DNA of 64,000 nucleotides from the NCBI GenBank assembly GCA_039934415.1, contig JBDTME010000007.1, positions 3,955-67,954 on the forward strand, read 5' to 3'. This DNA comes from Patescibacteria group bacterium (GTDB lineage Bacteria; Patescibacteriota; Microgenomatia; UBA1400; PJMF01). Numbering within the stretch: position 1 is the stretch's first letter; each line of letters opens with the position of its first letter. This document shows positions 14,457 through 23,016 of this stretch, piece by piece. The notes beneath the pieces are model-generated. The model did not search any database. It worked only from the letters and a program-made list of their open reading frames with translations, and had not been told where the DNA came from. A program made the translations under genes and the position numbers.

Positions 14457-15647
14457 TTACCTCGACAAGAAAGTCAGCGCTTTACCCAACTTTCCTGCTC
14501 GGCCTGTTCGGCCAATACGGTGAATATAGTCTTCGTAAGTCTGAGGTTCATCATAGTTAATGACGTGCGTAACATTTTCAATATCGATACCTCGAGCTGC
14601 CACATCTGTAGCAAGCAAGACTTGAACGTAGCCACCTTTAATATCTTGGAGCGAACGTTGACGAGCACCTTGAGTTTTGTTTCCGTGAATCGATGACACT
14701 CTAACCCCTCGAGAAACCAAGATCTCTTCCAACTTATTGATGCCATGCTTGGTTCGACCAAAAACGATGACTTTCTTGAATTCTGGTTGCTTCAATAACT
14801 CGTGCAAAACGTCAATCTTGTTACCACCTGGGGCAACTCGAACAACTTCTTGATGAATATGATTACTCGTCACCTTACTTTTGACGGTCACTTGGACTGG
14901 GTCTCGAAGTAAAGAACGCATAATGTCTTCAGTTTCCCGATTAATCGTGGCACTGAAAAAGGCAGACTGTCGTACTTCTGGTAATTTTGAGATCAAAAAC
15001 TTGATGTCTTTGACAAAACCAATATCGAGCATTCGATCAACTTCATCTAAGACGATGTTGGTGAACATTCTGGTATCAAAAGCTCCTCGATTGATCAAAT
15101 CCTTGATACGACCTGGAGTTCCAATCACGAAATGTGGATTAGTGCGTAAGCGTTGAACTTGTTTATCTAAACTAGCTCCCCCGATACACAAACAGACTCC
15201 AATTTTGAGCCCGTTGCTGAACGCTAGTAATTCCTCTTGAATTTGCAGCGCGAGCTCTCGAGTTGGAGCCAGAATGAGTGCACCTTGTTGAGGGTCCAAG
15301 ATGATTTTATGAAGTAAAGGGAGTAAAAAGGCAGCGGTTTTACCCGTGCCAGTATTGGCAATACCTACGACATCTCGCCCTTCCATCAATGATGGGATGG
15401 TTTGATCTTGAATAGGAGTTGGTACGTCATACCCATGTGTGCGAACATTTTGAATCAATTTTGGATCCAAGTTAAATTCGTCAAATGTGTGTTGAGACAC
15501 GTACACCTCTTGTGTCTCTTGCTCAACAGCTTTATTAACGTATTTAGATGGATCGACAGTCGAAACTTGTGAGAATCGACCTCGACTCTGAGGTTGGCGC
15601 CGTCTGGGACTAAAAGAACCAGAACGCCCTTGATATGGGTAAGACAT
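14457..15647 (-). CDS. DEAD-box ATP-dependent RNA helicase
   Basis: Q-motif (FDEFNLDPKLIQNV...TPIQ), motif I ANTGTGKT, DEVD(RM), SAT, and motif VI HRIGRTGRAG. An Arg-rich N-terminal extension is present. The C-terminus ends shortly after motif VI. Confidence 0.9.
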   Translation of the reverse strand: MSYPYQGRSGSFSPRRRQPQSRGRFSQVSTVDPSKYVNKAVEQETQEVYVSQHTFDEFNLDPKLIQNVRTHGYDVPTPIQDQTIPSLMEGRDVVGIANTGTGKTAAFLLPLLHKIILDPQQGALILAPTRELALQIQEELLAFSNGLKIGVCLCIGGASLDKQVQRLRTNPHFVIGTPGRIKDLINRGAFDTRMFTNIVLDEVDRMLDIGFVKDIKFLISKLPEVRQSAFFSATINRETEDIMRSLLRDPVQVTVKSKVTSNHIHQEVVRVAPGGNKIDVLHELLKQPEFKKVIVFGRTKHGINKLEEILVSRGVRVSSIHGNKTQGARQRSLQDIKGGYVQVLLATDVAARGIDIENVTHVINYDEPQTYEDYIHRIGRTGRAGKLGKALTFLSR

Positions 15648-15756: not shown

Positions 15757-15960
15757 CTACTCCTCTTTCATCTTGTAAACAAAATTGACTCTGTGTTTTT
15801 TGTTTAGTAACTTTGCGGCGTATGCTTCTAACTCCTGATTCTGGGGAGTGACAGTAAATGTGCTGTGCCAATAATCTACTTCCAAGTTAAAAGTCTTCTC
15901 TTCCTCATCAACTGCAATATATGTCGCTTTATTTAGATAAAACTCGGTAATTTTTTTCAT
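15757..15960 (-). CDS. Hypothetical small protein (67 aa)
   Basis: ORF-track 71-aa ORF trimmed to the internal ATG (MKKITEFYLNK...), which is preceded by a GGGAGA SD. No recognisable domain. Confidence 0.4.
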   Translation of the reverse strand: MKKITEFYLNKATYIAVDEEEKTFNLEVDYWHSTFTVTPQNQELEAYAAKLLNKKHRVNFVYKMKEE

Positions 15961-15971
15961 GTTTTCTCCCA

Positions 15972-15998
15972 TAAAAAAAGCTCCTCTGGTGGGAGCTC
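15972..15998 (-). terminator. Intrinsic terminator-like hairpin (minus orientation)
   Basis: agctcc-tctggtg-ggagct: a 6-bp stem followed on the minus strand by U7. It lies about 120 nt downstream of the XRE/62-aa gene pair and immediately upstream of the 67-aa gene. Confidence 0.45.
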
Positions 15999-21028: not shown

Positions 21029-22459
21029 CTAACCTAACTTTTTAATTTTGACACCACCTGCAGCATCCAGCACTTGATATCCAAAGCGGGCGATTTGTTC
21101 GCGTAATCGGTCCGATTCGTCCCAATTTTTGGTTAACCTTGCTTGCTCACGTTGATCCAGCAACTGCTGAACTTCAGGTGCTAACTCCTCTTTTTTTATT
21201 TCAACTGTATCAGTAGATGCTAAATTACTAAGTCCGAGTCCTAATACTGTATCGAACTCTACTAGCAAATCGTACTTATCGATACTCGGTACATTTGATT
21301 TTAAAACCTCCCACATGACAGCAACAGCTTCGGGTGTTCTGAGGTCATCTTCGATATAACTGAAAAAACGTTGGCGGTATTCCGCGATTTGATTCACTTT
21401 TTCTTCGGATAACGCTACTCTATCAGTGTCATGTTTAAACTGAGTAATTTTGGAACTCAAGCTACTCCACGCTGTCTGGGCACCAACCACATTATCCCAA
21501 GTGAAATTCATTTCTGATCGGTAATGCGTCGATAGAAAAAGGAGTCGCAAAGCCATGGGATTGATGTTCTTTTTTATCACATCATCAATCGTAAAAAAGT
21601 TTCCCAAACTCTTGCTCATTTTCGTTCCGTCGACGTGAAGATGATTATGATGCACCCAATACCTAACAAACGGAACTTTACCAGTTGCAGCTTCTGCTTG
21701 TGCAATCTCGTTGGTGTGATGAACAGGAATGTGATCAATACCACCAGTGTGAACATCGAACTGCTCCCCTAAGTATTCCATTGCCATCGCCGAACACTCG
21801 ATGTGCCAACCAGGAAAAGTGCGTTTTCCCCAAGGACTCTCCCAAACCATAGCACGATTTTCGCCTGATCGTTCAAACTTCCAGAGTGCAAAATCAGTTG
21901 GGTTCTTTTTTCCCGGCACTGCTTCAACTCGGGCGCCTTCCATGAGTTGTTTGGGATCAAAACCTGCTAACTTTCCATAATCAGAAATTTTTGAAGTGTC
22001 AAAATAAACGCCGTCATTCTCGATAATATAAGTAAAACCTTTTTGCTCGAGTGTTTGAACAAGGGCAATCTGAGCAGGGATATGATCAGTCGCGCGGCAA
22101 CTAATATCTGGTCGCAAATTTCCCATTTTATCCATTGAATAAAAAAAGTACGCCTCAAACTCTTTTGCAATATCCCAGACTGATTTATTATATTTCTTGG
22201 CACCTTTTTCTAATTTATCTTCTCCCGTATCAGCATCAGAAGATAAGTGTCCGACATCTGTCACATTTTGGACAAACTTCACCTGATACCCTGCTCGTCG
22301 CAGCGTCCGAATCAGCACATCATCCATCGTATATTTACGCAAATGTCCCAAATGGGTATAGTCATACACCGTAAATCCACACGCATAAAAACCCACACTG
22401 GGTGCCGCGATAGGTTGAAATTCTTCGACTAGTCGAGAAAGCGTGTTGTAGAGTTTCAT
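21029..22459 (-). CDS. cysS: Cysteine--tRNA ligase
   Basis: HIGH motif (YTHLGHLRKY) and KMSKS (KMSKSLGN). Zn-binding Cys in GFYACGFTVYD, and an anticodon-binding C-terminus. The ORF track starts at TTG 22480; the ATG at 22459 gives MKLYNTLSRLVEEF, matching E. coli MLKIFNTLTRQKEEF. Confidence 0.9.
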   Translation of the reverse strand: MKLYNTLSRLVEEFQPIAAPSVGFYACGFTVYDYTHLGHLRKYTMDDVLIRTLRRAGYQVKFVQNVTDVGHLSSDADTGEDKLEKGAKKYNKSVWDIAKEFEAYFFYSMDKMGNLRPDISCRATDHIPAQIALVQTLEQKGFTYIIENDGVYFDTSKISDYGKLAGFDPKQLMEGARVEAVPGKKNPTDFALWKFERSGENRAMVWESPWGKRTFPGWHIECSAMAMEYLGEQFDVHTGGIDHIPVHHTNEIAQAEAATGKVPFVRYWVHHNHLHVDGTKMSKSLGNFFTIDDVIKKNINPMALRLLFLSTHYRSEMNFTWDNVVGAQTAWSSLSSKITQFKHDTDRVALSEEKVNQIAEYRQRFFSYIEDDLRTPEAVAVMWEVLKSNVPSIDKYDLLVEFDTVLGLGLSNLASTDTVEIKKEELAPEVQQLLDQREQARLTKNWDESDRLREQIARFGYQVLDAAGGVKIKKLG

Positions 22460-22502
22460 ATACAAATGTGATTGTAACAAATAATGATAGTCCGTTTCTT
22501 AC

Positions 22503-22530
22503 AAAAAAAATCCGCCTCTTGGACGGATCA
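22503..22530 (-). terminator. Intrinsic terminator in the cysS 5' leader (attenuator segment 3:4)
   Basis: Minus-strand RNA gAUCCGUC-CAAGA-GGCGGAU followed by UUUUUUUU: a 7-bp stem including one G-U, a 5-nt loop and a U8 tract, ending about 45 nt upstream of the cysS ATG. Confidence 0.6.
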
Positions 22531-22555
22531 AAAAACAAAAATTCCAAGAGATTTT

Positions 22556-22600
22556 TTAATCTTTGGAAGGACAACAACTGGAAAAATTGATTACTAGCAT
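22556..22600 (-). CDS. Putative cysS leader peptide with tandem Cys codons (MLVINFSSCCPSKD)
   Basis: A 14-codon minus-strand ORF (atg cta gta atc aat ttt tcc agt TGT TGT cct tcc aaa gat taa) lying between a sigma70-like promoter and the terminator. Its 3' codons and stop form segment 1 of a 1:2 / 2:3 / 3:4 alternative-pairing attenuator. Confidence 0.45.
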   Translation of the reverse strand: MLVINFSSCCPSKD

Positions 22601-22607
22601 TGGGAAT

Positions 22608-22635
22608 ATCATAAATGATCGGATTGAATTGTCAA
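22608..22635 (-). promoter_or_regulatory. Sigma70-like promoter for the cysS leader (minus strand)
   Basis: Minus-strand TTGACA (plus 22630-22635), a 16-nt spacer, then TATGAT (plus 22608-22613). The predicted TSS is at or just before the leader-peptide ATG, implying a leaderless or very short-leader mRNA. Confidence 0.45.
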
Positions 22636-22776
22636 TCATTTTGTTACACATTTGAGAGGGGTACTCTGAAATTGAACACTCTTTGCCCCCGGGTACAATT
22701 CATACATGAAAAGGACTTGATTTAGCCTTCTTTTGTGGCTAATATATGGCCAATCATTACCGGGAAGGAACATCTT

Positions 22777-23016
22777 ATGTCTATAAATGGGTCTGAACCT
22801 CAACTGCGAATTGCCCTTTCTAATCAACTTCATGAGTTTTTGCGAGAAAAAAGTCAACAATTCGGATTGACGATGGCAGCGTATGTCAGAAATTTAATCA
22901 TTCAAGATTTGAAAGATGCGCAACGACCCATTTATCAAGCCCCTATCGATATTGATGAAAGTGTCAAAAAGAAAAAAAGGTTTTCAATAAAAGGTTTAAA
23001 AATGGTTGATGGCTAG
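22777..23016 (+). CDS. Ribbon-helix-helix (CopG/Arc-like) DNA-binding protein, orphan
   Basis: SEPQLRIALSNQLHEFLREKSQQFGLTMAAYVRNLIIQDL shows the beta-strand plus two-helix RHH pattern. The start is set at the ATG after GGAAGGAA (SD); the ORF track starts at 22735. Confidence 0.5.
   Translation: MSINGSEPQLRIALSNQLHEFLREKSQQFGLTMAAYVRNLIIQDLKDAQRPIYQAPIDIDESVKKKKRFSIKGLKMVDG

Follow-up and report, generated by a model that had tools for sequence, protein, structure and literature searches.

Upstream of cysS, the gene of the cysteinyl-tRNA synthetase (CysS), in a 64-kb stretch of DNA from a Patescibacteria metagenome-assembled genome (MAG; the whole stretch is called the window in the following) we find a leader with a strong promoter, an open reading frame (ORF) of 14 codons with two adjacent cysteine codons, and three mutually exclusive RNA pairings, one of which is an intrinsic terminator. 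We suggest that this leader is a ribosome-mediated transcription attenuator of the leader-peptide type which senses the supply of Cys-tRNA(Cys), and we put the probability of this reading, which rests on in silico work, at about three in four. The same unit stands upstream of cysS and on the same strand in eight related genomes (L161-L167 and L169) whose CysS proteins are 72-85% identical. The sequence elements, their conservation and their predicted alternative folds were observed directly. From these we infer that the small ORF is translated, that ribosomes stall at its Cys codons, that transcription either terminates or reads through behind it, and that the leader promoter has a share in CysS synthesis.

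Architecture of the cysS leader

The elements of the leader are compiled in Table 1. The promoter P1 (TTGACA, 16 nucleotides (nt), TATGAT), the 14-codon ORF with its adjacent UGU codons, the 1:2 pairing and the perfect complementarity between segments 2 and 3 were all proposed in the initial annotation of this DNA and are present as described there. P1 agrees with the promoter consensus at 11 of 12 positions and is the top match within the 3.4 kb covered by a promoter scan. Because its -10 box ends only 7 nt from the ATG of the mini-ORF, the transcript is predicted to be leaderless. The frame of the mini-ORF is also open further upstream, up to an ATG at position 22651, and these additional codons overlap the promoter. 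Segment 1 begins 7 nt past the first Cys codon.

In the unconstrained fold UUCCAAAGAUU is paired with AAUCU-C-UUGGAA (22553-22542) and the terminator is formed in addition. The U/G-rich spacer which follows the 1:2 hairpin may, by inference, be a transcription pause site. Segment 3 runs from the end of the terminator's 5' arm through the loop and into the 3' arm, of which it takes up the first base. At 22529-22509 the terminator scan reported GATCCGTC-CAAGA-GGCGGATT with a T run behind it. That segment 3 enters a stem with segment 4 which is followed by U8 is thus borne out, whereas the stem, previously given as 7 base pairs (bp), comprises 8 bp with one G-U pair and carries a 5-nt loop; the predicted energy of the hairpin is -9.8 kcal/mol. 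The unit bracketed by the promoter and the terminator measures ~98 nt.

Table 1. Features of the cysS leader and of other elements in the window. All coordinates of the cysS leader refer to the minus strand of the window; aa, amino acids.
Feature	Position	Strand	Description
Promoter P1	22608..22635	(-)	TTGACA 22635-22630, 16-nt spacer, TATGAT 22613-22608
Leader ORF MLVINFSSCCPSKD with TAA stop (14 codons)	22556..22600	(-)	ATG 22600, TAA 22558-22556
Tandem Cys codons UGU UGU (proposed sensor)	22571..22576	(-)	codons 9-10, four codons ahead of the stop
Segment 1, UUCCAAAGAUU	22558..22568	(-)	final codons and stop of the leader ORF; partner is segment 2
Segment 2, AAUCUCUUGGAA	22542..22553	(-)	partner is segment 1, or segment 3 (antiterminator)
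U/G-rich spacer UUUUUGUUUUUU	22530..22541	(-)	3' of the 1:2 hairpin
Segment 3, UCCAAGAG	22523-22516	(-)	perfect complement of CUCUUGGA within segment 2
Intrinsic terminator	22503..22529	(-)	GAUCCGUC 22529-22522, loop CAAGA, GGCGGAUU 22516-22509, U8 22510-22503
Promoter P2, extended -10 TGTTACAAT	22471..22479	(-)	11 nt ahead of the cysS ATG, downstream of the terminator
cysS, cysteinyl-tRNA synthetase, 476 aa	21029..22459	(-)	ATG start, without Shine-Dalgarno sequence
Ribbon-helix-helix-like ORF, 79 aa (LRIALSNQLHEFLREKSQQFGLTMAAYVRNLI)	22777-23016	(+)	divergent from the cysS leader, GGAAGGA Shine-Dalgarno sequence
Q/K/E-rich protein gene, 195 aa	23013-23600	(-)	converges with the ribbon-helix-helix-like ORF, 4-nt overlap
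Second leader, start	TACAAT 16084-16079, 7 nt, ATG 16071	(-)	mini-ORF MNTLSFRSICCNSFIQ
Second leader, 1:2 hairpin	within 16084-15973	(-)	ACUCCUU/AGGGAGU
Second leader, 2:3 antiterminator	within 16084-15973	(-)	GGGAGUCU/AGAGCUCCC (also given as GGGAGUC/GAGCUCCC)
Second leader, terminator	within 16084-15973	(-)	AGCUCC-CACCAGA-GGAGCU and U7
ORF of 71 aa downstream of the second leader	15757-15972	(-)	
DEAD-box helicase gene downstream of the second leader	14457-15647	(-)	own promoter-like box
Example starts with a -10 box near the ATG	7521(+), 13195(-), 14413(-), 20979(-), 24111(-), 38761(-)		
Further example starts with a -10 box near the ATG	46997(-), 48871(+), 58246(-), 58276(+), 61205(+)		

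Predicted folding and switching

Constraint folding of the window leader gave all three alternatives, 1:2, 2:3 and 3:4, which had been postulated from the sequence. The free RNA adopts the 1:2 hairpin together with the terminator (-18.3 kcal/mol). When the first 40-43 nt are masked, which mimics a ribosome whose A site is occupied by a Cys codon and whose footprint reaches ~12 nt downstream, segment 1 is no longer accessible and the minimum free energy structure is the 2:3 antiterminator with loss of the terminator (-12.6 kcal/mol). A mask extending to the stop codon plus 12 nt covers segment 2, and then the terminator alone forms (-9.8 kcal/mol). Taken separately, the 1:2 duplex of the window has -9.6 kcal/mol, a value matched by 0.25% of shuffled sequences, and the 2:3 duplex has -13.1 kcal/mol.

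The relatives behave in a similar manner. The free RNAs of all nine genomes, that is the window and the eight relatives, fold into 1:2 plus terminator, masking up to the Cys codons switches six of the eight relatives to 2:3, and masking up to the stop codon brings the terminator back in all nine sequences. In six of the nine sequences the 1:2 duplex is more stable than 97.5% or more of the shuffled versions of its bases; the stretch tested clipped segment 1 in L167 and L169, and their hairpin is visible in the folds of the individual sequences. As alignments with MAFFT put segment 1 out of register in four of the nine sequences, the pairing was judged sequence by sequence.

From these folds the following mode of action can be proposed. 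The strong promoter P1 would start a leaderless transcript with the AUG of the 14-codon ORF as its first codon. With plentiful Cys-tRNA the ribosome would reach the UAA and cover segment 2, which would leave segment 3 free for the terminator, and with no ribosome loaded segment 1 would pair with segment 2, so that segment 3 would likewise be free for segment 4. RNA polymerase would then halt at the U8 tract behind the terminator hairpin. If Cys-tRNA is scarce, the ribosome would stall with UGU UGU in the decoding centre and with its footprint over segment 1; with segment 1 masked, 2:3 would form before segment 4 is made, no terminator would arise and transcription would continue into cysS.

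Conservation in related genomes

The informative relatives (CysS 71-85% identical) were collected by a protein database search followed by retrieval of their contigs, and the comparison set consists of nine genomes, namely the window, L161-L167 and L169. In all eight relatives a -10 box stands 6-10 nt ahead of the ATG of the mini-ORF, and six of them have a TTGACA-like -35 box as well. The mini-ORF is open in all nine genomes with 13-18 codons, its lengths differing by whole codons, and the peptides of the relatives read MTVKKYSSCCFSKI (L161), MSTQKYLANISCCLFKK (L162), MLVANLSGCCLSKS (L163), MFLNIVSCCHFKR (L164), MSHKQFSMCCIPKT (L165), MQVNYFPTCCSKSS (L166), MSSHNWFLYSTFTCFRSI (L167) and MQYIITTNCCDSV (L169). 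Thus, the mini-ORF with a Cys pair upstream of cysS, conservation of which the initial annotation had named as a check of its proposal, is kept in the relatives apart from the second Cys codon of one of them: the pair reads TGT TGT in the window and six relatives (seven of nine genomes), L169 has TGT TGC, and L167 has only one TGT.

The mean pairwise identity of the nine genomes varies strongly along the leader: it is low in the N-terminal codons (36%) and in the spacer (51%) and high in the Cys codons (89%), in segment 2 (94%) and in the terminator with its U run (94%). As read from this comparison, the block pattern is the signature of a leader peptide, in which the Cys codons and the RNA switch are kept and the rest of the peptide drifts. 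The core CUUGGA of segment 2 is invariant in all nine genomes and so is segment 3, UCCAAGAG. Segment 1 occurs as UCCAAAG, UCCAAG, UUCAAG, UCUAAG and CUUCAAG, each of which still pairs with the CUUGGA of segment 2, and its register relative to the stop codon is shifted in L166, L167 and L169. All pairs of the terminator are kept, with one position changed from U-G to U-A, and are followed by U6-U8 throughout. The U/G-rich tract after the 1:2 hairpin is likewise found in all relatives.

A covariance model built from the nine copies matched only these nine in 1.24 Mb of sequence (the window and 172 loci), the window copy with 87.6 bits and the relatives with 52-92 bits. The family is single-copy and confined to this sub-lineage. 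Relatives with a CysS of at most 64% identity showed no element in scans of one-genome-per-species contigs and of metagenomes of the Joint Genome Institute, and the locus L172 is too short to judge its presence.

Predicted leaderless expression

The initial annotation regarded it as a caveat that the predicted transcription start coincides with the ATG of the peptide, which implies leaderless translation. This objection does not hold for the genome in question. The sequences upstream of 63-65 long ORFs of the window were listed, and for 63 of them -10 boxes and Shine-Dalgarno (SD) motifs were counted: a -10 box 4-11 nt upstream of the ATG is present in 17 and an SD-like motif in 14, and the two never occur together. 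Strict -10-like hexamers peak 6-9 nt from the first ATG, with 16 ORFs at this distance versus 0-2 per other offset. The ORFs with a -10 box (for examples see Table 1) show TATAAT, TACAAT or TATACT without an SD, and a separate set of ORFs has an SD of the AGGAGG type. Judging from these upstream regions, leaderless mRNAs appear to be one of the main modes of gene expression in this Patescibacteria genome. The 7-nt spacing of the mini-ORF sits on the 6-9 nt peak, and therefore the caveat turns into a supporting argument. About half of the ORFs of the window carry neither an SD nor a -10 box, and hence SD-less internal initiation seems to be common as well.

Comparison with known systems

In Firmicutes cysS or cysES is usually controlled by a T-box riboswitch, and the Firmicutes also were the frame in which the leader was first discussed. 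This frame does not apply, since the host is a Patescibacteria MAG. Rfam 15 yielded nothing relevant in the whole window at gathering thresholds, and neither a T-box nor a leader at E<=10 in the region 22350-22850. T-box and known leaders are therefore excluded, as the proposal of a new leader had presupposed, and a Firmicute T-box context (RF00230) was rejected given the lack of an Rfam match and the host phylum. The proposed attenuator resembles the T-box in that an aminoacyl-tRNA synthetase gene is placed under a choice between terminator and antiterminator which responds to tRNA charging. In contrast to the T-box, it has neither a specifier loop nor a T-box sequence, and the proposed sensor is the translating ribosome and not the direct binding of tRNA.

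Cys-codon leader peptides of cysS have been published before, contrary to the earlier statement that such a mechanism is not commonly described, namely for Rhodobacterales (PMC8632094) and for Deinococcus deserti (PMC4007540). The Rhodobacterales motif uORFC-8-2 has a tandem-Cys upstream ORF (uORF) and a terminator and is found exclusively upstream of cysS (PMC8632094). It shares with the window element the short ORF with two tandem Cys codons, the intrinsic terminator with a U run and the position upstream of cysS, and was also read as ribosome-mediated attenuation which raises CysRS at low Cys-tRNA (PMC8632094). On the other hand, uORFC-8-2 belongs to Alphaproteobacteria and not to Patescibacteria, and its Cys codons are at positions 14-15 inside the first stem and mostly UGC (PMC8632094), whereas those of the window type are at positions 9-10 (7-14 in the relatives), upstream of segment 1 and outside of the stems, and mostly UGU. 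In addition, the window ORF is predicted to be leaderless, and cysS is separated from the terminator by a second promoter or by extra genes. No sequence similarity to uORFC-8-2 was detected in a comparison that relied on the description in the paper and left it unchecked whether Rfam 15 includes the motif. To judge by these features, the window element is an analogue of uORFC-8-2 and not a member of this family.

In D. deserti a leaderless leader of 10 aa with two Cys codons was found at the mapped 5' end of the cysS mRNA (de Groot et al. 2014, PMC4007540). Here too the start coincides with the AUG of a tiny two-Cys ORF upstream of cysS in a genome rich in leaderless genes, and attenuation was proposed. 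Unlike in the window, where the start is predicted from the sequence, it was mapped by differential RNA sequencing, and the cysS of D. deserti has an SD on the same leader, whereas the cysS of the window has no SD and possesses its own -10 box; the sequences are unrelated.

The mycobacterial "Cys ribulon" comprises leaderless polycysteine small ORFs which act as Cys-responsive translational attenuators at several loci (Canestrari et al. 2020, doi 10.1101/834739). Common features are the leaderless start, at least two consecutive Cys codons, the proposed sensing of Cys-tRNA by ribosome pausing, the proposed control of operonic genes further downstream and the occurrence at several loci per genome. 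The mycobacterial case that has been characterised differs in that it unmasks a sequestered ribosome-binding site and controls genes of cysteine metabolism, whereas the window element combines a terminator with an overlapping antiterminator and the downstream genes in the Patescibacteria cases are cysS, small ORFs and a PIG-L deacetylase gene, and a 71-aa ORF for the second leader described below. The cysS of the window has no SD that could be sequestered, so that ribosome-binding site sequestration of the mycobacterial kind was not found here.

The trp/pheST-type logic with a Cys-codon sensor, which the initial annotation had put forward, is supported by the in silico tests of folding and conservation. 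As in the textbook cases trpL and pheM/pheST of E. coli, 1:2, 2:3 and 3:4 exclude each other, the regulatory codons are situated a few codons ahead of the stop, and the stop codon is placed such that a terminating ribosome covers segment 2; in the case of pheST the target is also an aminoacyl-tRNA synthetase. The textbook leaders differ from the window leader in being led by an SD, in having no promoter between the attenuator and the gene and in the amino acid sensed. We found no paper on attenuation in the Candidate Phyla Radiation (CPR)/Patescibacteria.

A generic scan of both strands of the 1.24 Mb for ORFs of 8-30 codons with adjacent Cys codons and a hairpin with T6 or longer within 100 nt matched only the nine family members and L022, L043, L092 and L158, all of them on the cysS strand and upstream of cysS; the match in L158 (L158 112) is 0.9 kb upstream of the gene. 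Poly-Cys mini-ORFs with terminators upstream of cysS were seen in unrelated lineages among the 159 other CysS loci. On the cysS strand they are found in an Alcaligenaceae locus (L022 3859, ...NCCCPCQ...), in a Burkholderiales locus (L037, ...GCCCCWC...), in Variovorax (L043 3813-3822, ...DACCSS...) and in L092 (L092 303, MNKNLCCTCSCGDDGECAC), with a metagenome contig among these lineages. The spread of these ORFs suggests that Cys leader peptides for cysS were invented repeatedly and independently.

The cysS promoter, the downstream genes and alternative explanations

The protein encoded by cysS matches Pfam tRNA-synt_1e with 5e-98 and has the CysS_C anticodon-binding domain. With 100% identity it equals an NCBI entry that carries the annotation cysteine--tRNA ligase of a Patescibacteria-group MAG. 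The nearest species-level genomes by CysS are Patescibacteria and Daviesbacteria MAGs with at most 55% identity. The position of the leader upstream of cysS, as first annotated, is confirmed for all nine genomes; the picture of a simple cysS leader has to be modified, as cysS has the promoter P2 of its own and is preceded by other genes in the relatives.

A TACAAT/TATAAT-like box 5-35 nt upstream of cysS, in several cases with a preceding TGn, is found in CysS relatives of 49-85% identity, and thus cysS very probably has its own ancestral promoter. As the terminator precedes P2, any contribution of the attenuator can only come on top of a basal level of expression. We suggest that P2 would provide this basal expression of cysS and that the attenuator would add a component inducible by starvation; an inducible P1-attenuator transcript on top of a basal P2 transcript is the most economical reading.

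In the window 43 nt without any gene separate the U tract from the ATG of cysS. In the eight relatives the terminator is followed after 13-150 nt by one or two genes with an SD and then by cysS. These genes code for small proteins of 77-118 aa in L161 and L163-L166, L162 has a frameshifted copy, and in L167 and L169 a PIG-L/LmbE deacetylase gene (Pfam PIG-L) takes this place; Pfam assigned no family to the small genes except PIG-L. The small gene of L161 is related to that of L163 and the one of L165 to that of L166. cysS is the first downstream gene in the window and the sole constant downstream gene across the nine genomes. In the stretches inspected no terminator was noticed between the intervening genes and cysS, and therefore read-through would reach cysS in the relatives too. 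In the sister genomes the transcript would thus meet cysS only after the PIG-L deacetylase gene or after one or two small genes with an SD.

This gene order leads to the alternative that deserves most attention, although we consider it unlikely. The element could be functional in the clade and a relic in the window, its true targets being the small SD-led or PIG-L genes which were deleted here, with cysS expressed essentially from P2; transcripts from P1 would then terminate or read through without yielding much CysS. Such a relic would fit the presence of one or two SD-bearing genes between terminator and cysS in eight of eight relatives as opposed to a mere 43 nt in the window, the extended -10 box which cysS retains in the absence of an SD, and the use of a proximal -10 box for cysS in distant relatives which lack the element. 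However, the window copy is intact with a promoter matching at 11/12 positions, an open ORF, all segments and a covariance score of 87.6 bits within the 52-92 bits of the relatives. Moreover, it is cysS that stays as neighbour throughout and the intervening genes that vary among the relatives. With about half of the ORFs lacking both SD and -10 box, internal initiation without an SD seems to be common, and other phyla have independently combined Cys codons with cysS.

Several observations weigh against an attenuator that senses Cys-tRNA and controls cysS in the window. Owing to P2 behind the terminator and to the lack of an SD, read-through from P1 may yield little CysS, and in the relatives the gene immediately downstream is not cysS. 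The leader of L167 has one Cys codon only. The element is absent from L168, L170 and L171, whose CysS has 71-72% identity and whose synteny is partly different, and it is, on the genomes compared, a lineage-specific feature. The fold of the window leader alone is unexceptional, its minimum free energy of -18.3 kcal/mol corresponding to z = -1.37 versus shuffles. Formal covariation, as evaluated on a model-fitted alignment of nine very similar copies, is not significant, with the core pairings invariant among close relatives; a single double-sided change was seen, in L164 (U-A to C-G), along with several C-to-U changes that produce G-U pairs, and 170 of 500 column shuffles did equally well. Finally, the terminator remains the minimum free energy structure by ~1-3 kcal/mol in the window, L164 and L166 if the mask is slightly different or the 3' end slightly shorter. 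Thus, the choice of the switch would have to be kinetic. In classical attenuators the choice is kinetic as well, 2:3 being able to form ahead of the transcription of segment 4.

The unit might also be an independent small RNA of ~100 nt or the mRNA of a micropeptide with two Cys residues which exerts no cis-regulation on the downstream genes. A unit of ~98 nt bracketed by a strong promoter and a strong terminator, invariant and seed-like segments 2 and 3 (CUCUUGGA/UCCAAGAG) and the separate promoter of cysS would be in line with this idea. We nevertheless regard it as improbable. The peptide is not conserved beyond the Cys pair and the codons of segment 1, which argues against a functional peptide, and the open frame, the fixed geometry and the synonymous change of a Cys codon argue against a purely non-coding RNA. 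An independent transcript also leaves unexplained why three mutually exclusive pairings are spaced at ribosome-footprint distances and why the unit is always upstream of, and oriented towards, same-strand genes ending in cysS.

Still much less probable is an operator at the DNA level, in which the inverted repeat CTCTTGGA-N26-TCCAAGAG would be bound, for example, by the ribbon-helix-helix (RHH)-like protein encoded divergently at 22777-23016, and the mini-ORF would be incidental. The repeat is a conserved perfect inverted repeat of 8 bp and a small divergent RHH-like ORF is indeed present in the window, inserted between the Q/K/E-rich gene and the cysS leader. Yet a homologue of this ORF was not found in any of the fetched loci, the eight element-bearing relatives included, the repeat is part of a canonical hairpin with U tract downstream of the promoter, and the Cys codons and the frame of the ORF would lack a reason for conservation. 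The assignment of the RHH-like protein is itself based on a weak, sub-threshold NikA-like match in Pfam, and no partner toxin gene was seen. On the cysS side, the upstream neighbour in L162, L163 and more distant relatives (for example L082 and L083) is the Q-rich gene. As the upstream neighbour in the window is divergent, the terminator of the leader is not the end of an upstream gene, and this possibility was rejected. A chance occurrence was rejected as well, the same architecture being present in eight related genomes and the specific scans matching upstream of cysS only.

Further Cys-codon elements

A second tandem-Cys leader, which is unrelated in sequence to the cysS leader, is present on the minus strand of the same window at 16084-15973 (Table 1). 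In constraint folding it displays the same three-state behaviour as the cysS leader. None of the fetched loci contains a homologue of the 71-aa ORF downstream of it or of a 62-aa ORF.

L169 (694-1429) and L167 (283-1009) share a site at which the PIG-L gene that follows the Cys leader is interrupted. The site reads CUG/GUG GAG UGU CUU UGU UGA and comprises an SD-like GGAG, a 3-nt spacer, a slippery CUU-U, a Cys codon in the A site and UGA. Skipping of one base after CUU (+1) results in the full-length PIG-L protein, ...AHPDDEALMWGA(L/V)ECL-VEAGIPV.... The N-terminus with AHPDDE is missing from the called ORF in 18 of 21 PIG-L homologues, and 6 of these start in the +1 frame across the DDE codons. 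By its layout the split looks like a candidate programmed +1 frameshift of the prfB/Ty1 type at a slow, "hungry" Cys codon. We found no paper linking LmbE with programmed frameshifting, and the window itself has no PIG-L gene.

The PIG-L and CysS homologues P0124/P0049, P0126/P0022 and P0139/P0007 form pairs from the same sources and from contigs of the same size (2641, 3250 and 2014 nt). Such pairs point to PIG-L deacetylase genes being common neighbours of cysS in the clade. The pairing recalls mycothiol synthesis with MshB, a PIG-L protein, and MshC, a paralogue of CysRS.

One may speculate that the cysS leader, the leader at 16084-15973 and the PIG-L frameshift of the sister genomes are parts of one multi-locus Cys-sensing network, a "Cys ribulon", acting entirely by ribosome pausing at Cys codons; we put this forward tentatively and consider it rather doubtful at present. 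If this were true, a natural "hungry-codon" programmed frameshift would serve as amino-acid sensor on top of a transcription attenuator, and this in organisms about whose gene regulation hardly anything is known.

Implications

The principle is not new, as the mechanism including its use for cysS has already been published. What sets the present case apart is its host phylum, a predicted leaderless start that is combined with a switch built on a canonical terminator, and the additional promoter or genes ahead of cysS. For annotation a concrete small ORF and a cis-regulatory RNA are gained which are currently overlooked. In addition, the element would show at least four independent origins of a tandem-Cys cysS leader, in Rhodobacterales, in Deinococcus, in Burkholderiales-like loci and in the CPR.

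Patescibacteria/CPR are uncultured episymbionts with reduced genomes which must scavenge amino acids. To our knowledge, almost nothing is known about gene regulation in this group. A conserved leaderless Cys-codon attenuator would show that these bacteria monitor the charging of tRNA(Cys) by means of the ribosome, and it would also show that leaderless translation is a major mode of initiation in the lineage.

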